NCBI RefSeq assembly: GCF_000470655.1
Contig: NC_021921.1
Location: 2,719,566-2,743,565, forward strand
Direction of reading: 5' to 3'
From: Halorhabdus tiamatea SARL4B
GTDB taxonomy: Archaea > Halobacteriota > Halobacteria > Halobacteriales > Haloarculaceae
Length of the DNA: 24,000 nucleotides
Part shown: piece by piece, positions 3,897 to 15,540 of the stretch
Layout: each line of letters begins with the position of its first letter
Position numbering within the stretch: the stretch's first letter is position 1
The notes under the pieces: generated by a model
The model's input: the letters and a program-made list of their open reading frames with translations, nothing else
Told to the model about the DNA's origin: nothing
Databases searched by the model: none
Program-made: the position numbers and the translations under genes

Positions 3897-3998
3897 ACCG
3901 TCTCGTTTGTCCCTATACGGCTTCCAGGGCCGATTCTGGGTGGCAAGCGGCCATCGGGAACTTCACAAGGCTTATGCGCGAGTTGGCAGTTTCCTTGC

Positions 3999-4004
3999 CT
4001 AATG
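3999..4004 (+). promoter_or_regulatory. TATA-like box (CTAATG) upstream of the aglB ATG at 4028
   Basis: AT-rich element centred about 26 nt upstream of the ATG at 4028. A second candidate, CCTATAC at about 3912-3918, would instead give a leadered transcript. Confidence 0.3.
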
Positions 4005-4027
4005 AGTGTTCGGAGGGTTCCCGACAT

Positions 4028-7000
4028 ATGAGTGGGCTGAATGACTACGTTAGCGATGATTCGCCTGTCAACGACGTCATCGAGTGGTTGTCGGCGTGGT
4101 ACCACGTCCTGATCGTCGCCGGCCTGTTCGGGTTCATGGTCTGGCTGCGAGCCCGAACGTGGGGTCGATTCCTCGTCGACGGGAAGGTCCTTTTCAGTGG
4201 GAACGACCCGTGGTATCACCTGCGCCAGATCTCCTATACGGTCTCACACTGGCCCTCGACGATGCCGTTCGATCCCTGGACGGAGTTCCCCACCGGAACG
4301 TTCGTCGGCCAGTTCGGGACGTTCATGGATCAGTTGGTCGCGACAGCGGCGCTCGTCATCGGCCTCGGAAGCCCGAGTGACGAATTGGTCCGTCTCGTCG
4401 CGCTGTTCTCCCCGGTCGTCTTCGGTGCGGCGATCGTCGTGCCGACGTACTACCTCGGCAAGCGGATGGGCGGTCGACTCGGTGGGGTGATCGCCGCGCT
4501 CGTCCTCGCGCTGTCGGCCGGGGAACTCCTCCAGCGGAGCCTCGTCGGGTTCGCGGACCACCAGGTCGTCGAGGCGCTGTTTCAGGCCCTCGCCGTCCTC
4601 GGAATTTTGATCGCCGTTCGGGTGGCACAGGAGGAAAAACCAGTCTACGAGCTGTTCGTCGACCGCGACTGGGCGGCGCTTCGTCGCCCGCTGGGATGGG
4701 CGACGCTGGCCGGCGCTGGCCTCGGACTGTATCTCTGGACGTGGCCGCCGGCGATCCTCCTCATCGGGATCCTGGGAGTCTACGTGACCATTCAACTGCC
4801 GGTCGCCTACCTCCGCGGCGAGAGTCCCGAACACGTCGGGATCGCGACAGCGACGATCTTCTCCGTGGCCGGTGTCCTCTCGCTGGTCTCGATCACTTCG
4901 TTCGACCTCAACATGGTCCAGCTATCGCTGGCCCAGCCGGCACTCGCATTCGCTGGCGTCGCGTGGTCACTCGGATTGGCCTGGCTCGCACGTGAATGGG
5001 ACCGACGTCATCTTGCGAGCTGGCAGTACCCCGCGACGGTCTTCGGTGGACTCGTCGTCGGTGCCGTCCTGCTCGCCGTACTGCTGCCGGACCTGTTCTG
5101 GTACTTCTTCGATCAGTTGCTCCGGTTCGTCGGCTTCACCGTCAACCCGACCGCCTCGGCCAGTACGGTCGGCGAAGTTCAGCCTCTGACGACGATCGAT
5201 CCACTCTGGCAGTGGTTCGGGGCCGCGCCATTTGTCGCGGTCGCTGGGGTCGGCATTGCCATCGCTCACCAGTACCTCAGCGACGAACTCAAGCCGGAGT
5301 TGCTCTTTGTCGCCCTCTGGTTCGTGTTCATGGTCGCGGCGACGTTCACCCAGCAGCGATTCGCCTACTACCTCACCGTTCCGACCGCGACGCTGACTGC
5401 CCTCGTCGTCACCTGGCTGTTCGGGTATCTCCGCTCGGCTGCTGACAGCAGCGACCTCGAGACCTATCAGGTCCTGACGATCCTCAGCGTGGTCGTCGCC
5501 GTCGTCCTGCCGATGGTCGTCGTCTATCCGACCGCCATCGACGTCTCCGGACAGAACGGTCCTGGTGGCGTCTCCGGCTGGGAGAGTAGCCTCGAGTGGA
5601 TGAGCGAGAACACGCCCGCCGTGGGCAACTACGGCGGGGCCGGCAACGCCGAAGACCTCGACTTCTATGGCACCTACGAGCGGACCGACGACTACGAGTA
5701 TCCCGACGGTGCCTACGGCGTGATGTCGTGGTGGGACTACGGTCACTGGATCACCCAGGAAGGCGAACGCATCCCCGTAGCCAACCCGTTCCAGGGCAAC
5801 GCCGACAAAGCAGCCAGGTTCTTGATCGCTCAAAACGAGTCGGAGGCGGCTGGTGCCCTCGACGTGGTGAGCGAAAACGAGACCGACGCCCAGACGCGCT
5901 ACGCGATGATCGACTGGAAGATGGCGACTGCCAACGGCGCTTTCGGCGGGAAGTACTTCGCGCCGCCGAACTTCCTCGATACCGTCTCTGAGTCGACGTA
6001 CTACCGCAAGGTTCGCGGACTCGTCTCGACCGAGGAGCAGTCCTCGATCACCAGCCAGTATTACACCGTCCAGAAACAGGCTTACTACGAGTCGATGTCA
6101 GCCCGGCTGTACCGGTATCACGGGAGCGCTGCCTCACCGGAGAACGTGCCGGGCGTCAGTACTCAGGGGCGGATTCCGGTCGTCGACTGGGAGGAGACCC
6201 CGGTGACGCTTTCCGACGGGACTGAAACGACCTGGAACGTCCCGGCGAGAAACGAGAACGGGTCGGCCCAGGCGCTGCGATGGTTCGACAACCGCACGGC
6301 CGCAGAAGCCTACGTCGCCGAGGACGGAACCGCTCAGATCGGTGGGCTCGGGAAGATTCCGGCCGAGGAGGTGCCCGCACTTGAACACTACCGGCTGGTC
6401 CACGTGAGCAACCAGAGCCAGAACTCGTTCACGGCGAGCCAGCCCGGCCTGCTGTGGTTCGCCCAACAGAACGCCCAGAATCAGCAGGTGCAGTATCAGT
6501 CTGGCGTGGGCGTCCGGGATCTGCTGGGCGGGACGTTCTCCGAACCCAACAGCGCCTGGACGAAGACCTTCGAGCGGGTCCCTGGCGCGACCGTCGAAGG
6601 AACTGGCCCGGCCAATACGAACGTCACAGCCTCCGTCGAGATGGAGATGCCCAACGCCAACGGGACGTTCACCTACCGCCAGCACGCCCAGACTGACGCT
6701 GACGGCGAGTTCACGATGACGCTACCGTACTCGACGACGGACTACGACGCGGTGAGTACCGAAGACGGCTACACGAACGTCAGCGTGCGAGCGAACGGGT
6801 CCTACGAGTTCCGAACACCGTCGACGACCCACTCGACGAACGAGAGCGTGACGGTGACTGCCTACACCGACACCGCGGACGTCTCCGACGAGCAAGTCGT
6901 CGGGACCGACGAGTCGGTCGTGGAAGTCAACCTGACCGAGTCCGTCCTCTTCGAACAGGATCTCAATTCCTCGGACGATTCGACGAACGAGACGGGCGAG

Positions 7001-7141
7001 AACACGACAGACGGCACCGAGACGAGCGACACGGACGGTGGATCGACCGGCGAAACGGACGAGAACACGACCGAATCGCTCGCGCCTGCAATCGCCGTCG
7101 GCGACGCACCGATCGCTCGCGCAGCTCCCACCGGCTACTAA
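4028..7141 (+). CDS. aglB: archaeal oligosaccharyltransferase AglB (STT3 family)
   Basis: Catalytic WWDYGHW motif (VMSWWDYGHWITQEG). The N-terminal half has many transmembrane segments and a GNDPWYHLR loop. A large C-terminal soluble region follows. The longest ORF begins at ATG 3974; ATG 4028 (MSGLNDYV...) is preferred because of the TATA spacing, but the start is uncertain. Confidence 0.93.
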   Translation: MSGLNDYVSDDSPVNDVIEWLSAWYHVLIVAGLFGFMVWLRARTWGRFLVDGKVLFSGNDPWYHLRQISYTVSHWPSTMPFDPWTEFPTGTFVGQFGTFMDQLVATAALVIGLGSPSDELVRLVALFSPVVFGAAIVVPTYYLGKRMGGRLGGVIAALVLALSAGELLQRSLVGFADHQVVEALFQALAVLGILIAVRVAQEEKPVYELFVDRDWAALRRPLGWATLAGAGLGLYLWTWPPAILLIGILGVYVTIQLPVAYLRGESPEHVGIATATIFSVAGVLSLVSITSFDLNMVQLSLAQPALAFAGVAWSLGLAWLAREWDRRHLASWQYPATVFGGLVVGAVLLAVLLPDLFWYFFDQLLRFVGFTVNPTASASTVGEVQPLTTIDPLWQWFGAAPFVAVAGVGIAIAHQYLSDELKPELLFVALWFVFMVAATFTQQRFAYYLTVPTATLTALVVTWLFGYLRSAADSSDLETYQVLTILSVVVAVVLPMVVVYPTAIDVSGQNGPGGVSGWESSLEWMSENTPAVGNYGGAGNAEDLDFYGTYERTDDYEYPDGAYGVMSWWDYGHWITQEGERIPVANPFQGNADKAARFLIAQNESEAAGALDVVSENETDAQTRYAMIDWKMATANGAFGGKYFAPPNFLDTVSESTYYRKVRGLVSTEEQSSITSQYYTVQKQAYYESMSARLYRYHGSAASPENVPGVSTQGRIPVVDWEETPVTLSDGTETTWNVPARNENGSAQALRWFDNRTAAEAYVAEDGTAQIGGLGKIPAEEVPALEHYRLVHVSNQSQNSFTASQPGLLWFAQQNAQNQQVQYQSGVGVRDLLGGTFSEPNSAWTKTFERVPGATVEGTGPANTNVTASVEMEMPNANGTFTYRQHAQTDADGEFTMTLPYSTTDYDAVSTEDGYTNVSVRANGSYEFRTPSTTHSTNESVTVTAYTDTADVSDEQVVGTDESVVEVNLTESVLFEQDLNSSDDSTNETGENTTDGTETSDTDGGSTGETDENTTESLAPAIAVGDAPIARAAPTGY

Positions 7142-7144
7142 ATC

Positions 7145-8110
7145 GTGTCTACGGAACAGTCACCCTCGGCTCTCGACGTTCGCGCCTGGGTGGTGATCTA
7201 CCTCAAGGGGGTTGCGATGGGGACGGCCGACTCGGTCCCTGGCGTCTCCGGCGGGACGATCGCGCTCATCACCGGCATCTACGAGCGGTTGATCAGCGCC
7301 ATTGCGACACTCGATCCCCGGGCCGCCAGACACCTCCTCCGGGTGCATCACGCAAACGGCCGACAGGCGCTGGTCAGCCGCTTGCTCGCGATGGATGTCC
7401 CGTTCCTGGTCGTTCTCGGGTCCGGTGTCGCGACGGCGATCGTGGTCGTCTCGCGGGTGATGCACGCGGCACTCGCCGACGCACGAGCGCTTACGTTCGC
7501 GTTCTTCTTCGGGTTGATCGCCGCGTCGGCGGTCGTCCTCTACGAACACGTCTCGGTCGCCACGCCCGGGCGGATCGCCGCCGCGGTCATCGGGTTCGCG
7601 CTCGCCTTTCTCGTCTCGGGCGTTTCGGCTGGTTCGGAAGCCTCCCACGCGTTGCCGTTCGTCTTCGTGGCGGGGGCTATCGCGATCACCGCGATGATCT
7701 TGCCGGGCGTCTCGGGGGCGTTCTTCCTCGTCCTCCTCGGCCAATACGACCACCTGACGACGGTCCTCAAACGGTTCGTCGACCGGTTGGTCGGCCTCGC
7801 GGTCGGTGACGCGACGCTCGCCGACGTATTCGACCTCGGGACGACTGTCCTGACGTTCGGGGTCGGCGCGATTCTCGGCTTGCTCGCGTTCGCCCGGGTC
7901 GTCCAGTGGGCGCTCGCGACCTACCGGGCGGCGACGTTGACCTTCCTCGTGAGTTTGATGGTCGGGGCGCTCCGGTTGCCCGCCATCGAGGTTCTCGACA
8001 ACACCGCTGCCTGGACGCCGGGGACGACGGTCGCGACGCTCGCGGCTGGCGGCGTCGGTGCGCTCGCGGTCCTCCTGTTGGATCGGTACACGGAGTCGCT
8101 GTCGTACTGA
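7145..8110 (+). CDS. DUF368 family membrane protein (PopT-like putative polyprenyl-phosphate translocase)
   Basis: 321-aa polytopic membrane ORF with the duplicated DUF368 signature: GTADSVPGVSGGTIALITGIYERL and AMILPGVSGAFFLVLLGQYDHL. The GTG start lies 3 nt after the aglB stop. Confidence 0.87.
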   Translation: MSTEQSPSALDVRAWVVIYLKGVAMGTADSVPGVSGGTIALITGIYERLISAIATLDPRAARHLLRVHHANGRQALVSRLLAMDVPFLVVLGSGVATAIVVVSRVMHAALADARALTFAFFFGLIAASAVVLYEHVSVATPGRIAAAVIGFALAFLVSGVSAGSEASHALPFVFVAGAIAITAMILPGVSGAFFLVLLGQYDHLTTVLKRFVDRLVGLAVGDATLADVFDLGTTVLTFGVGAILGLLAFARVVQWALATYRAATLTFLVSLMVGALRLPAIEVLDNTAAWTPGTTVATLAAGGVGALAVLLLDRYTESLSY

Positions 8111-8172
8111 CAGCTCGCGCCGACGGGATCCGAGTCGGTAGCGTTTTCCCCACGCTGGGCCTGCCAGAGCGT

Positions 8173-9243
8173 ATGCGCGTCCTCAACTATCTCGATTTCG
8201 AGCGGTATCTCGGTTCTTCCGGGATCACCACGGCGGCCAGTCACCAGCGGAGGGCGCTGGCCGGGCGAGGCGTCGAGGTGGAAACGTCGCCCTGGGACGG
8301 TCGAAACCCGCTGACTGCCAGCCTCTCGAATCTCGGCACCGATTCGGTATGGACCGACTTCGACGTGGCTCACTGTAACCTCATCGGCCCCGGGTCGATC
8401 GCCGTCGCCAGGCACGCAAAGCGCCAGGATATCCCCCTCATCCTGCACTCTCACGTCACTCGCGAGGACTTCCAGGAGAGCTTTCGGGGGTCGAACCAGA
8501 TCTCGAAGCCGCTCGGTCGCTATCTCCGGTGGTTCTATTCGCAGGCTGACCTCGTGCTCTGTCCCAGTGAATACACCCGCCGGGTGCTCGAGTCCTATCC
8601 CGTCTCGGCCCCGATCCGACCGATGACCAACGGCGTCGACCTCGACGCACTCGACGGCTACGAGAAGTTCCAGGCCTCCGCCAGGGAGAAACACGACCTC
8701 GACGGCGTCGTCGTCTTCGCCGTCGGGCAGGTCTTCGAGCGCAAGGGACTCACCACGTTCTGCCGGGTCGCCCAGCAAACCCCCTACGACTTCGCGTGGT
8801 TCGGTCCCTACAGCACGAGCCCGCTGGCCTCGAAGACGGTCAAACGCTGGACGCAGAACCCACCGGAGAACGTCACTTTCACCGGCTGGGTCGAGGACAT
8901 TCGGGAAGCCTACGGCGCGGGCGACATCTACCTGTTCCCCACCAAAACCGAGAACCAGGGCATCGCAGTCCTCGAGGCGATGGCCGCCGGGAAGGCCGTC
9001 GTCATCCGGGACATTCCGGTCTTCGAGGAGTTCTTCACCGACGGCGAGGACTGTCTGAAAGCCGAGACTGACGCGGAGTTCCGCGAGGCGGTCGAACGCC
9101 TCGCCGAGAACCCCGAACTCCGCGAGCGGCTGGGCGAGAACGCTCGCGAGACGGCTGAACAACACAGTCTGGATCGCGTCGGCGAGGAACTCGTCTCGGT
9201 CTATCGGGCACTGCTCGACGGGGACGATCCGATCGAGGCCTGA
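8173..9243 (+). CDS. glycosyltransferase family 4 (GT-B fold)
   Basis: MRVLNYLDFERYLGSSGITTAASHQRRAL is a typical GT4 N-terminus. The C-terminal motif ENQGIAVLEAMAAGKAVVIRDIPVFEEF is an EX7E-type motif. The ORF track extends to 7906, but that extension overlaps the DUF368 gene and is Arg-rich, so ATG 8173 was chosen. Confidence 0.87.
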   Translation: MRVLNYLDFERYLGSSGITTAASHQRRALAGRGVEVETSPWDGRNPLTASLSNLGTDSVWTDFDVAHCNLIGPGSIAVARHAKRQDIPLILHSHVTREDFQESFRGSNQISKPLGRYLRWFYSQADLVLCPSEYTRRVLESYPVSAPIRPMTNGVDLDALDGYEKFQASAREKHDLDGVVVFAVGQVFERKGLTTFCRVAQQTPYDFAWFGPYSTSPLASKTVKRWTQNPPENVTFTGWVEDIREAYGAGDIYLFPTKTENQGIAVLEAMAAGKAVVIRDIPVFEEFFTDGEDCLKAETDAEFREAVERLAENPELRERLGENARETAEQHSLDRVGEELVSVYRALLDGDDPIEA

Positions 9244-10495: not shown

Positions 10496-10666
10496 TTAGA
10501 TCTCTTCGACGGGGCTGTAATTACCGTTGATGTCCCACTCGTGGAGACAATGCGGGCTGCCGGTCTCCTCGTCGGATGCGGCCCAGACGCCGCGGTCGTC
10601 GTCCCAGACCTCCATGCGTCCACACCGCTCGCATTCGCGTTCGTTCGGGGGTACGATTCGGATCAT
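10496..10666 (-). CDS. HEWD family small zinc-binding protein
   Basis: 56-aa product MIRIVPPNERECERCGRMEVWDDDRGVWAASDEETGSPHCLHEWDINGNYSPVEEI. It has CxxC plus HCxH ligands and the literal HEWD motif of a small family conserved in haloarchaea, as I recall it. ATG 10666 is preferred over the upstream start at 10693. Confidence 0.65.
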   Translation of the reverse strand: MIRIVPPNERECERCGRMEVWDDDRGVWAASDEETGSPHCLHEWDINGNYSPVEEI

Positions 10667-10720
10667 GGGTGAGCGGAAGGCGCGAGCCGACAAGAATGTC
10701 TCGGGTCCACGGGTGGACGG

Positions 10721-11149
10721 TTACAACTCGACGCTGCCCGGGATGAGGCTACTGGAGCGAAGTAACTGTCCGGTGGTATCATAGACCAGCAGTGTCTGTT
10801 TCTCGAAGCGAACGCGGTCGTCGCCGGTCACGATCTCGACCCGGTAGCGACCGTCGTCGGCCTCGGCGACGTCGACGACGCGCTGTACGGCCGTGGTTTC
10901 GGCGTCGAGTTCAACGATGAACGCCCCGGTAAGGCGCTTGGCGATGCTCACCACGCCCGTCTCTCCCTCACGTTTGCGAAACGCCACGTCGACGTCCGCG
11001 CTCTCGAGCGTTGCACCGTCCCCGTCGGTCAGTCGGTCGCGAAGGACGGCCACACTCCCGCTGTAGTCGACCCGCAGCGTCGGAACGTCGGGGGCGTCGG
11101 GCGTATTGCCGGCCGGGATCGCAGTCACGCTGAAGTGTTCGCGCTTCAT
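10721..11149 (-). CDS. conserved hypothetical soluble protein (haloarchaeal)
   Basis: 142-aa acidic product starting MKREHFSVTAIPAG. A TATA-like CTATAGT (11172-11178, minus strand) is centred about 26 nt upstream of ATG 11149. The longer ORF reaching 11236 adds only an Arg-rich extension. Confidence 0.65.
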   Translation of the reverse strand: MKREHFSVTAIPAGNTPDAPDVPTLRVDYSGSVAVLRDRLTDGDGATLESADVDVAFRKREGETGVVSIAKRLTGAFIVELDAETTAVQRVVDVAEADDGRYRVEIVTGDDRVRFEKQTLLVYDTTGQLLRSSSLIPGSVEL

Positions 11150-11368
11150 CCGATATGTAGTGGTATGTGTTACTATAGCATGAAGGTGACGGCGGCGACA
11201 GGTTCGGCCGTTTGGCACTCGTCTTTCTGGCGGCATCTGCCCGCCGGCTGGTGCGCTGGTGACTGTCGACGCCGATCGTCATGACGGGCGCGTGGCGTCC
11301 GAATTTAAGTACCTGGACTCGCAATTCGGCATAAGCAACGACGTCGGACGCGTCGCGAAGAAAGTACG
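11150..11368. promoter_or_regulatory. divergent promoter region
   Basis: The 219-nt spacer holds two AT-rich boxes. CTATAGT at 11172-11178 serves the minus-strand gene and TTTAAG at 11304-11309 serves the plus-strand ATPase. The latter implies a roughly 35-nt leader. Confidence 0.4.
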
Positions 11369-13042
11369 ATGTCAGAACCAGATCGCCCACGCGACGGGGG
11401 AGGCAACGCAAATGTCGGGACAGCCACACGGACAGGTGACGAGGTCGCCGACCGCGGGCCACTCGGCGCGGCAAAGGACTGGCTCGTTCGCGTCAAGCGT
11501 TCCCTTGCAGGATCGCACGTCGTCGTCGAGAATTACGACCCGCTCCGACACGAACACTTGACGAACTTCGGCGGACTTCCCGGGATGAACGAGATCGAAC
11601 GCTACTGGCTGAACGCGCCCTACGCGTTCGCGTCGATCAATTACGACCCGGAGCAGGACGAACACCGCTATCACGTCGTCGAACCCGGTCTTGACGACTT
11701 CGAGCGCGATCTCTTGGATCGGCTGTTCGAGGACGTCCGCGATCCGCTGTTGTATCGGGCGAACGTCGACGAAGACCCGGAAGGCGCGTTGCTCTCGGAA
11801 CTTCGGGAGCGCTTAGAGGAGTACGGCGTCGACGTCCGGATCGAGACGGTCCATCGGCTCTTCTATTACCTCTTCAGGGAGTTTCAGGGCTACGGCAAGA
11901 TCGATCCACTGATGCACGACCCTGCGATCGAGGACATCTCGTGTGACGGGGCGGGATTGCCGATCTTCATCTATCACGACGGCTATACCGACATCGAGAC
12001 GAACCTGACCTACGACGCCGCCGAACTCGAGAACGTCGTCGTTCAACTTGCCCAGCGCTCGGGTCGACACATCTCGGTTGCCGATCCCGTCGTCTCGACG
12101 ACACTGCCCGACGGTTCACGGATCGAACTCGCTCTTGGGACTGAAGTGACGCCACGCGGGTCGGCCTTTACGATTCGGAAGTACGCCGAGGACCCGTTCA
12201 CACCGATCGACCTGCTCGAGTACGGCACCTTCAGCAAGGAGATGCTCGCGTATCTCTGGCTCGCCATCGAGCACAACAAGTCACTGCTGTTCGCCGGCGG
12301 GACCGCGGCCGGGAAGACGACTTCGATGAACGCCGTCTCGATGTTTATCCCGCCGCGAGCGAAGGTTCTCACCATCGAAGACACCCGCGAACTCTCGCTG
12401 TATCACGACAACTGGTTGTCGTCGGTGACGCGCGAGCGCTTCGACGAGGACGACATCTCAATGTACGACCTCCTGCGGTCGGCCCTGCGCCATCGCCCGG
12501 AGTACATCGTGGTCGGTGAGGTGCGCGGCGAGGAGGCGATCACGCTGTTCCAGGCGATGAACACCGGTCACACGACGTTCTCGACGATGCATGCCGACTC
12601 GGTCCAGACGGTCATCAATCGCTTAGAGAACGAGCCGATCAACGTCCCGCGACCGATGGTCCAGAGCCTGGACGTCCTGGCCGTCCAGGTGTTGACCCGC
12701 CAGGGCGACGAGCGCGTGCGTCGGGCGAAGACGCTGGCGGAGATCGAGGGTATCGATCAGCGGACGGGCGAACTCGACTACGCCAACGCCTACGAGTGGC
12801 AGTCAAACACGGACAGCTACGCCCAACGGGACTCCTCGTTGCTCGAAGGGATCCGCGAGGAACGCGGCTGGAGTCAGTCCGAACTCCTCCGTGAACTCGA
12901 CGATCGAGAGCGCTTTCTCGCCCATCTCCAGGCGGAGGGCGTCTCGGACTACCGCCGGTTTACGTCGTTCGTTAATCGATACTACGCCGATAAGGACGCC
13001 GTCATGTCGCGAATCGAGGGCGAATCCACCACGGAGACATGA
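11369..13042 (+). CDS. type II/IV secretion system ATPase (archaeal FlaI/ArlI/PilB family)
   Basis: Walker A is GGTAAGKTTSMNA, the Asp box is LTIEDTRELS, Walker B is RPEYIVVGEVRGEEA and the His box is GHTTFSTMHADS. The FlaI-type N-domain signature ERYWLNAPYAFASINYD...YHVVEP is also present. Confidence 0.93.
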   Translation: MSEPDRPRDGGGNANVGTATRTGDEVADRGPLGAAKDWLVRVKRSLAGSHVVVENYDPLRHEHLTNFGGLPGMNEIERYWLNAPYAFASINYDPEQDEHRYHVVEPGLDDFERDLLDRLFEDVRDPLLYRANVDEDPEGALLSELRERLEEYGVDVRIETVHRLFYYLFREFQGYGKIDPLMHDPAIEDISCDGAGLPIFIYHDGYTDIETNLTYDAAELENVVVQLAQRSGRHISVADPVVSTTLPDGSRIELALGTEVTPRGSAFTIRKYAEDPFTPIDLLEYGTFSKEMLAYLWLAIEHNKSLLFAGGTAAGKTTSMNAVSMFIPPRAKVLTIEDTRELSLYHDNWLSSVTRERFDEDDISMYDLLRSALRHRPEYIVVGEVRGEEAITLFQAMNTGHTTFSTMHADSVQTVINRLENEPINVPRPMVQSLDVLAVQVLTRQGDERVRRAKTLAEIEGIDQRTGELDYANAYEWQSNTDSYAQRDSSLLEGIREERGWSQSELLRELDDRERFLAHLQAEGVSDYRRFTSFVNRYYADKDAVMSRIEGESTTET

Positions 13043-15540
13043 GCCTCACGGGATACCTGCCACTGGTCGCCGCACTCGCGCTCGCCGGAGCGCTCGCGCT
13101 GACCCGCTTCAGCCCGCGTCTCGACAGGGTGTTCACCCGGATCGCTCGCCAGTATTTCAGCCAGCACATCGGTGAGTCACCGGCCCGCGAGCGCCTGCTC
13201 GCGTCCGCGTACGTCGAGACGACCTACCGGGTGTACGCGGCCAAGACGCACCTCTACACCGCACTCACAGCACTCATTGGCGGGATGATCGGCGTCTACG
13301 TCGTCGGCGGAGCCCTGATCGTGATCCCGACCATCGCCGCCGTCCTCGCCGACCTCCCGTCGGTCATGGGCGACGTCCTGGGCAATCGGAACCTCGAAAT
13401 CGTCCTCCCGCCTGACCAGGTGTTCCTCGTCCTTACCGTCGGTGGGGTCGTGATCGGCGGGCTTTCCGCAGTTGTGACCTACGTTGCTCGCTGGCAACTC
13501 CCGGCAGGTGACGCCGAAGTTCGCCGTCGGGGAATCAACGAAGCGCTCCCCCGGACGGTCGCGTTTATTTATGCGCTCTCCCGTGGAGGCCTTGCCTTCC
13601 CTGATGTCATGCGAACGCTCGGGCGTAACCGGGAGATCTACGGCGACGCGGCCGACGAGATGAGCGTCGCCGTCCGGGAGATGGACCTCTTCGGGACGGA
13701 CATGATCTCGGCGATCAGGCGGGCGGCCCACCGCAGTCCCAGCGACACGTTCCGGACGTTCGGCGAGAACCTCGCGAGCGTCCTCGCCAGCGGCCAGCAG
13801 ATCCCCCAGTTTCTGGAAGACCAGTACGACCGCCTCCAGGAGGAGGCCGAGCAACGCCAGGAGGAAGTGCTCGAACTGCTCGCGACTATCGCCGAAGCCT
13901 ACGTCACGACGCTGGTCGCCGGCATCCTCTTCCTGTTGACGATCCTGCTGGTGTTCGGGTTGACGGTGACCGATACGCTCCCCTTCCTCCAGTTGCTCAC
14001 GTACCTCATCATTCCGCTGTCGAACGCGTTGTTCGTCGTCTTCCTGGTGCAGAAACTCGAGGAACTCGGCGTCGCCCGGGAGAGTGGCGTCGCGGCCCTG
14101 GAAGGCGAGACGCCGGATACGATCGCTCCCGAGACACCGACGGCGACCGCCGACGGCGGTCACCTCCCGCGGCTGTCGGCCGGCCGGTCACAGCTCCAGT
14201 TGTACGACCGGATCAGTCGGTTCAAGCGCGTCCTCCGTCGCCCGATCCAGACGATCATCTGGAACCCGACGCGGATCTTCTATCTCACGGTCCCGATTGC
14301 GCTCCTGTGGCTGGCCGTTCGTGCGCCTGGAACGATCACGGAGTACGGGTTCAACCTCCGACTGGCTGATGATTTGATCATTCAGGTCTCTCTGTTCGTG
14401 ATCGGTACGTTCGCCATCGTCCGGGAGATCTACTCCCGGCGGATCGACCGCATCGAGGCCGCGACGCCGGAGTTGCTCGAACGGCTGGCGAGCCTCAACG
14501 AGGCCGGGATGTCCTTCGTCGAGAGTCTCGACCGGGTCCGGGATTCGGATCTCGGCGTCCTGACCGACGAGGTAAATCGCATCTGGACGGACGTTTCGAT
14601 GGGAGCGAACGCCGCCGACGCCCTGCGTCGGTTCGGCCGGCGAGTCCGAACAGCTTCGATCGCCCGGGTCGTCACGTTGCTCACCCACGCGATGCGGGCG
14701 AGCGGTCGCCTCGGACCTGTCCTGCGGATCGCCTCCGCACAGGCTCGTTCGGACCTCGAACTCCGTCGGGAGCGCCGCCAGCAGATGTTCACCTACCTGG
14801 TCGTGATCTACGTCTCGTTTCTGGTCTTTCTGGTCATCATCTTCGCCGTCGAGGAGGTACTCGTCCCGAGCCTCCCTGATAACGTTCCCGTCCCCGAGTC
14901 CAACCGCCTGGGCGTCGACGTCACCGCCTTCGCGAGACTCGGACAGGTCAACAAGCCCGCCTACACGCTGATCTTCCTGCACGCCGCGCTGATCCAGGCA
15001 GTGTTGTCGGGATTCGTGGCCGGGCTCCTCGGCGAGGGAACGCTCAAGGACGGCGCGAAACACGCCGCGATATTGCTCGCGATCGCGTACGTTGCGATCC
15101 TCCTCGTGACCTCGCCGGTCGCGTCACTGACCATGCAGGATCAGGAGGCCCTCGGCGACGGCGTCACGATCGACTCGGTCTCGACGTCGGAAGGCGGATT
15201 CCTGGTGATCCACGACCGGACGGCCGACGGGGCGATCGTGGGTCACACCGGCTACCTGCCGCCGGGCGAGCACACGAACGTCCGCGTTCGACTCGACGAG
15301 ACCCTCCAGCGCCAGACGACCCTGGTGGCCGTGCCGTATCTCGACGGGAACAGTGACAAGCAGTTCACCATCGGGGCCGATCAGCCCTACGGGACGGGCG
15401 GCGATCCGGTGGCTGTCGACGCACGCATCACGCCAGTCGAGCCCGAGTCGAGTCAGTCGCGGGCGGTCGGCGATGGCATCGCAGCCACGGTCGGAGACCG
15501 CGCGATGCCTGCATCGCCGGCGTTGCCGATCAGTCGCTGA
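13039..15540 (+). CDS. FlaJ/PilC/TadC-type (T2SS F family) membrane platform protein with an extra C-terminal soluble domain
   Basis: The 833-aa ORF overlaps the ATPase stop (ATGA at 13039-13042). It has two GspF/TadC-like cytoplasmic helical modules, each followed by transmembrane helices, as in FlaJ. The final ~140 aa form a non-membrane domain. Confidence 0.85.
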   Translation: MSLTGYLPLVAALALAGALALTRFSPRLDRVFTRIARQYFSQHIGESPARERLLASAYVETTYRVYAAKTHLYTALTALIGGMIGVYVVGGALIVIPTIAAVLADLPSVMGDVLGNRNLEIVLPPDQVFLVLTVGGVVIGGLSAVVTYVARWQLPAGDAEVRRRGINEALPRTVAFIYALSRGGLAFPDVMRTLGRNREIYGDAADEMSVAVREMDLFGTDMISAIRRAAHRSPSDTFRTFGENLASVLASGQQIPQFLEDQYDRLQEEAEQRQEEVLELLATIAEAYVTTLVAGILFLLTILLVFGLTVTDTLPFLQLLTYLIIPLSNALFVVFLVQKLEELGVARESGVAALEGETPDTIAPETPTATADGGHLPRLSAGRSQLQLYDRISRFKRVLRRPIQTIIWNPTRIFYLTVPIALLWLAVRAPGTITEYGFNLRLADDLIIQVSLFVIGTFAIVREIYSRRIDRIEAATPELLERLASLNEAGMSFVESLDRVRDSDLGVLTDEVNRIWTDVSMGANAADALRRFGRRVRTASIARVVTLLTHAMRASGRLGPVLRIASAQARSDLELRRERRQQMFTYLVVIYVSFLVFLVIIFAVEEVLVPSLPDNVPVPESNRLGVDVTAFARLGQVNKPAYTLIFLHAALIQAVLSGFVAGLLGEGTLKDGAKHAAILLAIAYVAILLVTSPVASLTMQDQEALGDGVTIDSVSTSEGGFLVIHDRTADGAIVGHTGYLPPGEHTNVRVRLDETLQRQTTLVAVPYLDGNSDKQFTIGADQPYGTGGDPVAVDARITPVEPESSQSRAVGDGIAATVGDRAMPASPALPISR

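Follow-up and report, generated by a model that had tools for sequence, protein, structure and literature searches.

A pilin-less pilB–pilC locus of Halorhabdus tiamatea as a probable PilB3/PilC3-type adhesion-pilus assembly machine

A locus that contains no pilin genes and assembles PilA adhesion pili in trans has been published for both pilB3-pilC3 and pilB1-pilC1 of haloarchaea (PMC4858521, PMC6491452, PMC7002104, PMC4292770). In Haloferax volcanii, the pilB3-C3 operon carries no pilin genes and is needed for the PilA1-6 pili (PMC6491452, PMC4371748). Makarova et al. describe this locus and its Halobacterium orthologue as devoid of pilins and acting on pilins in trans (PMC4858521). The pil-1 locus of Halobacterium salinarum R1 (pilB1, OE2215R; pilC1, OE2212R), the stated orthologue of pilB3-C3, is required for adhesion and for the formation of thin pili (PMC4292770, PMC7002104). 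According to Losensky et al., prepilin genes are lacking within about 100 kb of pil-1, and a flaI/pilB1 double deletion lost both pili and adhesion (PMC4292770).

The pilB–pilC pair described here was found in a 24-kb stretch of the Halorhabdus tiamatea SARL4B genome (referred to below as the window). The pair belongs to a single-copy haloarchaeal orthologue clade and has no linked pilin genes, and PilA-type pilins and the PibD peptidase are encoded elsewhere in the same genome. It is very probably the Halorhabdus orthologue of H. volcanii PilB3/PilC3 (Hbt. salinarum PilB1/PilC1), that is, the core assembly machine of a PilA-type adhesion pilus. By analogy with the published work on the H. volcanii and Hbt. 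salinarum orthologues, its function would be pilus assembly and its role adhesion. The features of the locus are as follows.

10496–10693, minus strand: HEWD-domain small protein, 56 aa counted from an internal ATG at 10666
10721–11149, minus strand: DUF5793, an acidic protein of 142 aa that lacks transmembrane helices; its gene is often found divergent to pilB3
11150–11368, no strand: spacer of 219 nt separating the divergent DUF5793 and pilB genes, with one AT-rich TATA-like element per gene
11369–13042, plus strand: assembly ATPase of pilB3 type, 557 aa; PilB3_N and PilB3_C domains in addition to a VirB11/T2SSE core
13039–15540, plus strand: pilC3-type polytopic platform protein, 833 aa, ATGA-coupled to pilB
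15121–15432, plus strand: DUF7282 domain, C-terminal in PilC3 (residues about 695–798); predicted extracellular Ig-like beta-sandwich

Identity of the ATPase and platform proteins

The ATPase matches the Pfam T2SSE family (122.8 bits, E 1.8e-35) and displays all four catalytic boxes intact: Walker A (GGTAAGKTT, residue 310), the Asp box (LTIEDTRE, residue 334), Walker B (PEYIVVGEVR, residue 377) and the His box (TGHTTFSTMH, residue 399). A reading made earlier from the sequence alone (the sequence-only reading) had called it a catalytically intact FlaI/PilB-type ATPase, translationally coupled to an 833-aa platform protein. Both statements hold: the pilB stop codon and the start codon of pilC share the ATGA at 13039–13042, and the platform protein contains two T2SSF stretches (Pfam, 113.7 bits, E 6.9e-33). 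The ATPase also carries the PilB3-specific N- and C-terminal domains (the Pfam pair PF23990 and PF23989, gathering score 27), with 38.1 bits for PilB3_N and 80.8 bits for PilB3_C. The corresponding values are 52–75 and 88–89 bits in Halobacterium and Halorubrum orthologues, and 21–24 bits (below the cut-off) and 28–36 bits in PilB4-type paralogues. A VirB11-type ATPase with both PilB3 domains and an adjoining single-gene platform with two T2SSF domains is the arrangement of H. volcanii PilB3/PilC3 (HVO_1034/HVO_1033).

Identity with bacterial type IVa PilB/PilC or with GspE/GspF of type II secretion was ruled out by scores far below the equivalog cut-offs (48.7 bits vs 675.65 for TIGR02538 and 48.4 bits vs 630.25 for TIGR02533). 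ArlI/ArlJ (FlaI/FlaJ) of the archaellum share their ATPase and platform superfamilies with the window pair, and the FlaI model is the best NCBIfam match of the ATPase by score. However, this match (383 bits) lies under the 550-bit equivalog cut-off, and the platform protein reaches 39–99 bits with ArlJ models whose cut-offs are 400–570. No archaellin, ArlCDEFGH or other archaellum accessory gene is present in the window, and the genome possesses its own ArlI/ArlJ pair at 773 kb. Identity with ArlI/ArlJ was ruled out on these grounds together with the separate ArlI clade described below.

A maximum-likelihood tree was calculated for 31 T2SSE ATPases of six genomes from six genera, including Halobacterium. 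The window ATPase falls inside a clade supported at 99/99, which has exactly one member in each of the six genomes and in which the Halobacterium bonnevillei orthologue is grouped. This clade is separate from the ArlI clade, where the present genome has its own member from the 773-kb pair, from a long PilB4-type clade and from two more distant clades, clade-4 paralogues being among the proteins that fall outside it. The PilB4-type ATPase (H. volcanii HVO_1160 type) is the sister clade, with 48% identity to the window ATPase over the core. Its locus lies at 2784–2796 kb in this genome, with the ATPase gene at 2785 kb, and both types belong to Makarova clade 2, the window pair being assigned on sequence grounds to this clade and to T4F system 2. 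The PilB4-type protein is much longer, at 855 aa in this genome, has additional regions at both termini and scores under the cut-off for PilB3_N, and its locus, unlike the window, has flanking genes of its own with class-III-like signal peptides.

Orthologous loci were compared over the best 80 of at least 579 relatives, a set with no record from Haloferax or from Hbt. salinarum R1; the best 120 matches listed in a protein search, all of them closer relatives, likewise include none from H. volcanii or Hbt. salinarum R1. Orthology to HVO_1034/1033 is supported indirectly, by the Pfam PilB3 models, by published orthology statements, by synteny and by membership of a single-copy clade that takes in a Halobacterium species other than Hbt. 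salinarum, the tree being without the reference proteins. Across Halobacteria, the window ATPase is 65–83% identical to those of the best 80 loci, and pilC directly follows pilB in 79 of them. A PilA-like gene within 6 kb was seen in a single locus of the 80; in the PilB3 orthologue group, it is the arrangement with no linked pilin that is conserved. Neither aglB nor other window genes recur as neighbours in any of these 80 loci, apart from one stray DoxX fragment and the DUF5793 gene discussed below.

The gene downstream of pilC encodes a VOC dioxygenase in the window. This differs from Haloferacaceae-type loci, where a methyltransferase follows pilC; a class I methyltransferase occupies this position in 18 loci, including those of Halorubrum, Halobaculum and Halobacterium. 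In a PDB sequence search, the methyltransferase retrieved no H. volcanii Trm9 structure and only the distant entry 5cm2, its second-best match, labelled 'tRNA methyltransferase', which we take to be a Trm9 structure. A methyltransferase 3′ of pilC, possibly Trm9-like, fits the synteny of HVO_1033 and HVO_1032. The latter is HvoTrm9 and is numbered next to HVO_1033 (PMC6144793). As in pil-1 of Halobacterium, the window has no linked prepilin gene, and the H. bonnevillei orthologue shares the ATPase clade. Halobacterium loci differ from the window in lacking both an adjoining DUF5793 gene and the DUF7282 extension, and the pil-1 transcript of Hbt. salinarum R1 takes in a third gene, OE2210R.

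Divergent neighbours and the platform extension

The divergent 142-aa acidic protein pointed out by the sequence-only reading is a DUF5793 protein (Pfam, 135.3 bits), whose start is confirmed by an MRRDYF N terminus conserved in 55 orthologues. It is predicted to be cytoplasmic, and its gene diverges from pilB3 in about 70% of the best 80 loci (55 of 80, from Haloarculaceae, Natrialbaceae, Haloferacaceae and others). It is the sole window gene conserved beside the orthologous pairs. The 219-nt spacer contains TTTAAG at about 11304–11309, upstream of pilB, and CTATAGTAAC about 25–30 nt ahead of the minus-strand ATG of DUF5793, both read from the sequence as putative promoter elements. The second divergent gene encodes the HEWD protein (85.1 bits, Pfam), whose proposed length of 56 aa is correct when counted from the internal ATG at 10666 within the 10496–10693 open reading frame.

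One alternative is that these two small proteins form with pilB and pilC a functional module of four genes and serve the motor as its own accessory or regulatory components. The frequent divergent placement of DUF5793 beside pilB3 in several families is in keeping with such a module, as is the near-universal presence of both proteins in Halobacteria, DUF5793 being found in 197 of 201 sampled genomes, mostly as a single match. However, HEWD was ruled out as a conserved partner: none of the 80 best loci, which include those of two other Halorhabdus species, has a homologue within 6 kb, and the protein appears from this comparison to be a local neighbour only, outside the conserved module. For DUF5793, the linkage is broken in Halovenus, Halosimplex, Halorussus and Halobacterium, and an extra open reading frame separates it from pilB in Haloarcula. 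Nor do DUF5793 and PilB3 strictly occur together across genomes: two genomes encode a 64–65% identical PilB3 orthologue and no DUF5793 at all. Two core genes lying side by side may also reflect retained ancestral gene order, and the predicted DUF5793 fold yields no relative that hints at a role. A functional module of four genes is therefore unlikely, and the conservation of the four-gene neighbourhood itself did not survive the comparison.

The AlphaFold2 model of DUF5793 has a pLDDT of 91.7, and a fold search of the PDB returned no relative (best E 0.078, TM 0.24); a literature search on the family found nothing. That a protein present in nearly all haloarchaea has a fold predicted with confidence and no PDB match may be a minor new point.

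The platform protein carries a C-terminal DUF7282 domain (Pfam, 99.6 bits), the only one in the whole genome. Among the best 80 loci, the PilC–DUF7282 fusion is present in 52, all of Haloarculaceae type, with two further loci in which DUF7282 occupies the next open reading frame, and it is absent from the sampled Natrialbaceae, Haloferacaceae and Halobacterium PilC orthologues. The Halorhabdus pair, from the Haloarculaceae, is distinguished in this respect from H. volcanii PilB3/PilC3. The AlphaFold2 model of the domain is all-beta (pLDDT 89.7), and a fold search against the PDB gave weak, generic Ig-like matches (best E 7e-3, TM ≤ 0.44). In the hydropathy map, DUF7282 comes after the last of three transmembrane helices that follow the cytoplasmic T2SSF domain 2, and it should therefore lie outside the cell. 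Judged from its distribution, DUF7282 is a lineage-specific addition to Haloarculaceae-type PilC3, with which the behaviour of the platform may differ in detail from that of Haloferacaceae, Natrialbaceae and Halobacterium orthologues. A literature search on DUF7282 also found nothing, and its restriction to Haloarculaceae-type loci may be a new, if minor, point. That DUF7282 contacts the S-layer or the pilus base, or that DUF5793 is an unrecognised partner or regulator of PilB3, is a doubtful proposition at present.

Pilins in trans and the proposed assembly pathway

The main evidence for the absence of pilins comes from the Pilin_N profile (PF07790), which has no match in the 24-kb window and ten in the genome, all outside it. 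In a FlaFind-like scan, none of the open reading frames of the window showed a class III signal peptide, the two matches being internal to PilC and DoxX; the scan is crude, and overlooked one PF07790 PilA elsewhere in the genome, whose motif starts with ESG. The window also contains no prepilin peptidase; the sole gene of the genome, at 1,318 kb, encodes a PibD with Peptidase_A24 and Arc_PepC_II domains. The profile search, the signal-peptide scan and the positions of these genes elsewhere bear out the statement that the window is without a pilin, a prepilin peptidase or an archaellum accessory gene.

Five of the ten Pilin_N proteins, encoded in four genome regions, are PilA-type with the N terminus R/S-G/A-VSPVIGVILMVA(I/V)TV(I/L)LAAV(I/V)(A/G)TFV, and the other five have divergent N termini. 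The VSPVIGVILMVA(I/V)TV(I/L)LAAV motif is presumably the hydrophobic domain of Haloferax PilA (PMC7002104). A pilin-less operon, with PibD and PilA-type pilins bearing a conserved hydrophobic domain encoded elsewhere, is again the situation of H. volcanii PilB3/PilC3.

By analogy with these systems, PilA-type prepilins encoded at several distant loci would be inserted into the membrane and cleaved by the single PibD peptidase. The hexameric PilB3 ATPase would dock onto the pair of cytoplasmic T2SSF domains in PilC3, and ATP hydrolysis would push the conserved hydrophobic N-terminal helices of the pilins from the membrane into the growing pilus. The resulting PilA pilus would serve surface adhesion and biofilm formation, and the Haloarculaceae platform would present in addition its predicted extracellular Ig-like DUF7282 domain.

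The pilin set of PilB3-C3 may be wider than PilA, because PilB3-C3 partly substitutes for PilB1-C1 in H. volcanii (PMC6491452). A stronger version of this idea holds that the Halorhabdus machine, although of PilB3/PilC3 type, mainly serves other pilins, for instance the non-PilA Pilin_N proteins, with DUF7282 adapting the platform to them. The five Pilin_N proteins with divergent N termini provide candidate clients, DUF7282 is confined to Haloarculaceae-type orthologues, PilB3-C3 can complement a pilB1-C1 deletion in H. volcanii (PMC6491452), and a swapping of pilin sets by ATPase/TadC modules has been argued for by Makarova et al. (PMC4858521). Against this, the genome encodes five pilins of PilA type that bear the conserved hydrophobic domain, and the 65–83% identity of the ATPase across families favours a conserved client, which makes a machine devoted mainly to other pilins very unlikely.

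An orphan motor for a non-pilus process such as protein export or DNA uptake or transfer, pilin-free or with unknown substrates, would suit a window without pilin, peptidase or accessory gene, a platform with an unusual predicted extracellular domain and a conserved neighbour, DUF5793, of no known function or fold relative, but it is barely credible given the PilB3-specific domains of the ATPase, the pilin-less layout that is the rule among its orthologues, the five PilA-type pilins and PibD in trans, and the genetics of two model species in which pili are built from pilins encoded elsewhere. The sequence-only reading had put forward both an orphan motor whose pilins would be encoded at other loci and an undescribed machine for another export or uptake process. 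The first is supported and coincides with the published role of pilB3-pilC3 and pilB1-pilC1; the second finds no support, given the PilB3 domains, the single-copy PilB3-type clade and the pilins and peptidase in trans. Since PilB3/PilC3 builds pili from scattered pilin genes, their absence from the window is the known normal state and no sign of a new machine. Orthologues are not routinely found beside pilins, as the single such locus among the best 80 indicates, but unlinked pilins are an already described defining feature of this locus type, so this does not make the module new. The pilin-less PilB3/PilC3 locus is already known, and there is little new in the window.

For a Halorhabdus-like, polysaccharide-degrading haloarchaeon, the PilB3/PilC3 assignment allows a confident annotation of the locus as pilB3/pilC3, the assembly machinery of PilA adhesion pili, and a listing of the probable client pilin genes. 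Pilin-less pilB-pilC pairs in other haloarchaeal windows should likewise not be taken for orphan machines. Two leads emerge from the comparison: the lineage-specific DUF7282 domain on PilC3 and the frequent divergent pairing of pilB3 with DUF5793. If true, a role for DUF7282 or DUF5793 would bring a further part into a machine whose components are taken to be the ATPase, the platform, the peptidase and the pilins alone.

Probable PilB3/PilC3 assignment of the module

The window is a GC-rich segment of the haloarchaeal chromosome (GC content of about 65%), spanning positions 2,719,566-2,743,565 on the 2.82-Mb contig of a genome whose second contig measures 0.33 Mb. The module in it comprises the following genes:

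10496-10693, minus strand: small HEWD-domain ORF (56 aa counted from the ATG at 10666)
10721-11149, minus strand: DUF5793 protein (142 aa)
11369-13042, plus strand: ATPase (557 aa)
13039-15540, plus strand: polytopic membrane (platform) protein (833 aa)

The ATPase matches the Pfam T2SSE model (E value of 1.8e-35) and displays Walker A (GGTAAGKTT), Asp (LTIEDTRE), Walker B (PEYIVVGEVR) and His (TGHTTFSTMH) boxes. Its stop overlaps the start of the platform gene in an ATGA, and the platform protein carries T2SSF in two stretches and DUF7282 at its C terminus. The window gives no hit to Pilin_N (PF07790), and no class III signal peptide emerges when all potential starts are screened in a FlaFind-like manner. 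Since the four genes, motifs and ATGA are present and both pilin signatures absent, the sequence-only reading, which had described an intact four-box ATPase coupled to a platform in a window devoid of pilins, is borne out in every detail.

The window ATPase scores 38.1 bits with PilB3_N and 80.8 bits with PilB3_C (Pfam cut-off of 27 for both). Its clade-mates from Halobacterium and Halorubrum reach 52-75 and 88-89 bits, and the long PilB4-type paralogues of H. tiamatea and Halobacterium 21-24 (below the cut-off) and 28-36 bits, respectively; on these scores, the two models separate the putative orthologues from paralogues. The H. tiamatea genome encodes four ATPase-platform pairs and one PINA-like ATPase. 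A maximum-likelihood tree was calculated from all T2SSE ATPases of this genome and of Halobacterium bonnevillei, Halorubrum rubrum, Natronorubrum texcoconense, Haloarcula vallismortis and Halobaculum rarum. This six-genome tree groups the window ATPase in a clade (support 99/99) with exactly one member per genome, whose sister is the long PilB4-type clade (100/100) and which is distinct from the ArlI (archaellum ATPase) clade (100/100) and from two more distant pilus-ATPase clades. Core identities repeat this pattern, decreasing from orthologues (71-81%) to PilB4 type (47-50%), ArlI (34-39%) and the rest (28-32%). Among the matches listed, the closest named relatives are Halorhabdus species (H. 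utahensis, 88%).

The PilB4-type locus (C1:2783779-2796002 on the large contig, about 40 kb downstream of the window) encodes an ATPase of 855 aa, extended at length at both its N and C termini, and a platform of 698 aa. Downstream come a cluster of genes whose products have class-III-like signal peptides, such as TRGVSVAITHGLTIAITGVLLIGLL and DRGQLVVIAALMIALTVLASVVLL, and a protein of 1273 aa. Several genes with class-III-like N termini flank this paralogue (2,785 kb), whereas the window module has no such neighbours.

Conservation of the locus across Halobacteria

One genome per species was scanned, which yielded at least 579 relatives, and the best 80 loci (65-83% identity) were compared with flanks of up to 6 kb. 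pilB is followed by pilC in 79 of these best 80, a contig end cutting the one exception. A PilA-like gene occurs in the flanks of just one of the 80; the absence of linked pilins is thus conserved in this orthologue group and does not stem from a local rearrangement. A HEWD gene is adjacent at none of the 80 loci and a divergent DUF5793 gene lies upstream at 55 (55 of 77 once three loci with less than 1.5 kb of upstream flank are dropped), so that the four-gene neighbourhood proposed earlier is not a conserved unit. The other window genes (aglB, DUF368, glycosyltransferase, VOC dioxygenase, HxlR and Lhr) are not conserved at the 80 loci either. An aglB-DUF368-glycosyltransferase N-glycosylation cluster (window 3974-9243) stops some 2 kb short of the module on its upstream side, and Haloferax PilA pilins are N-glycosylated; aglB is found within 6 kb of pilB3 at none of the best 80 loci, and its closeness is thus not conserved.

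The gene downstream of pilC differs with lineage among the 80 loci: a DNA-ligase-like gene at 21, a class I methyltransferase at 18 (including Halorubrum, Halobaculum and Halobacterium) and an MBL-fold-like protein at 8; the two-domain VOC/glyoxalase dioxygenase of the window is found at none. The second-best PDB match of the methyltransferase is a tRNA methyltransferase, 5cm2, which we take to be a Trm9 structure. HvoTrm9 is HVO_1032, numbered beside HVO_1033 (PMC6144793). The class I, possibly Trm9-like, methyltransferase after pilC lends small synteny support to PilB3/PilC3 orthology.

Probable pilus assembly from pilins in trans

The genome encodes ten Pilin_N proteins, all more than about 80 kb from the module. 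Five share a near-invariant N terminus, R/S-G/A-VSPVIGVILMVA(I/V)TV(I/L)LAAV(I/V)(A/G)TFV, presumably the conserved hydrophobic domain that is the hallmark of PilA adhesion pilins, as judged from the Haloferax pilins and PMC7002104. The only prepilin peptidase gene (1,318 kb) encodes Peptidase_A24 and Arc_PepC_II domains. Two PilA-type pilin genes stand in tandem at C1:1808281-1809353, with about 30 nt between open frames; their identical hydrophobic domains and unlike C-terminal domains suggest a recent duplication followed by divergence.

The genes are identified here and none of the parts is missing from the genome, and the module is very probably a PilB3/PilC3 machine that assembles PilA-type adhesion pili from pilins encoded in trans. 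PilA-type prepilins from scattered genes would enter the membrane and be trimmed by PibD; a PilB3 hexamer would dock on the cytoplasmic T2SSF domains of PilC3, and ATP hydrolysis would pull pilins from the membrane into the growing pilus. We infer the assembly role and adhesion phenotype of the Halorhabdus pair from characterised orthologues. The orthologues of HVO_1034/HVO_1033 are Halobacterium pilB1/pilC1 (Pfeiffer et al.; PMC7002104). According to Makarova et al. (PMC4858521), neither the pilB3-C3 locus nor its Halobacterium orthologue encodes pilins, and both work on trans-encoded ones. Losensky et al. (2015; PMC4292770) reported that prepilin genes are missing from the neighbourhood of pil-1 to a distance of about 100 kb, that thin pili and most adhesion are lost when flaI and pilB1 are both deleted, and that Halobacteriaceae broadly carry pil-1; a 2026 census places the locus in T4F 'system 2' (PMC13705601). 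The pilin-less PilB3/PilC3 locus type is already well described: an orphan motor assembling pilins encoded elsewhere was the right proposal, and a published one, and the suggestion of an undescribed machine finds no support.

DUF5793 and the DUF7282 domain

Of the 201 Halobacteria genomes sampled, 197 carry DUF5793, for the most part with one match each, and the protein has an invariant C-terminal SLIP(S/G)GVEL motif. Its predicted fold is confident (pLDDT 91.7) and has no relative in the PDB (best E value of 0.078). The frequency of its divergent pairing with pilB3 (55 of the best 80 loci) would suit a real partnership, functional or regulatory, but such a link is improbable, the linkage being broken in several genera, PilB3 being kept without DUF5793 in two genomes and a membrane-protein ORF separating the two genes in Haloarcula. 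This ORF of Haloarcula-type loci, on the pilB strand, encodes a predicted membrane protein of about 170-190 aa (MAWVKSEYAGEFAVLATWLV...; in Haloarcula vallismortis, locus L032:5257-5841, plus strand); the window has no counterpart in its DUF5793-pilB spacer of just 219 nt.

Within H. tiamatea, DUF7282 is found solely in PilC3. It is fused to PilC at 52 of the best 80 loci, all Haloarculaceae-type, and absent from the PilC orthologues (about 700 aa) of Natrialbaceae, Haloferacaceae, Halobacterium and others among the 80. Two more loci carry it in the ORF after a shortened pilC (L037:9147-10031 and L073:9901-10209), which could mean that the frame has shifted, that the sequence is in error or that platform and extracellular domain really are split. 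Because a hydropathy map places DUF7282 after the third transmembrane helix following cytoplasmic T2SSF domain 2, it should be located outside the cell. The confident AlphaFold2 model (pLDDT 89.7) is an all-beta sandwich with generic Ig-like PDB matches only. Among the papers searched, none mentions DUF7282 or DUF5793. The module as a whole is of a known kind, and what novelty it holds may be minor, residing in DUF7282 on PilC3 and in DUF5793.
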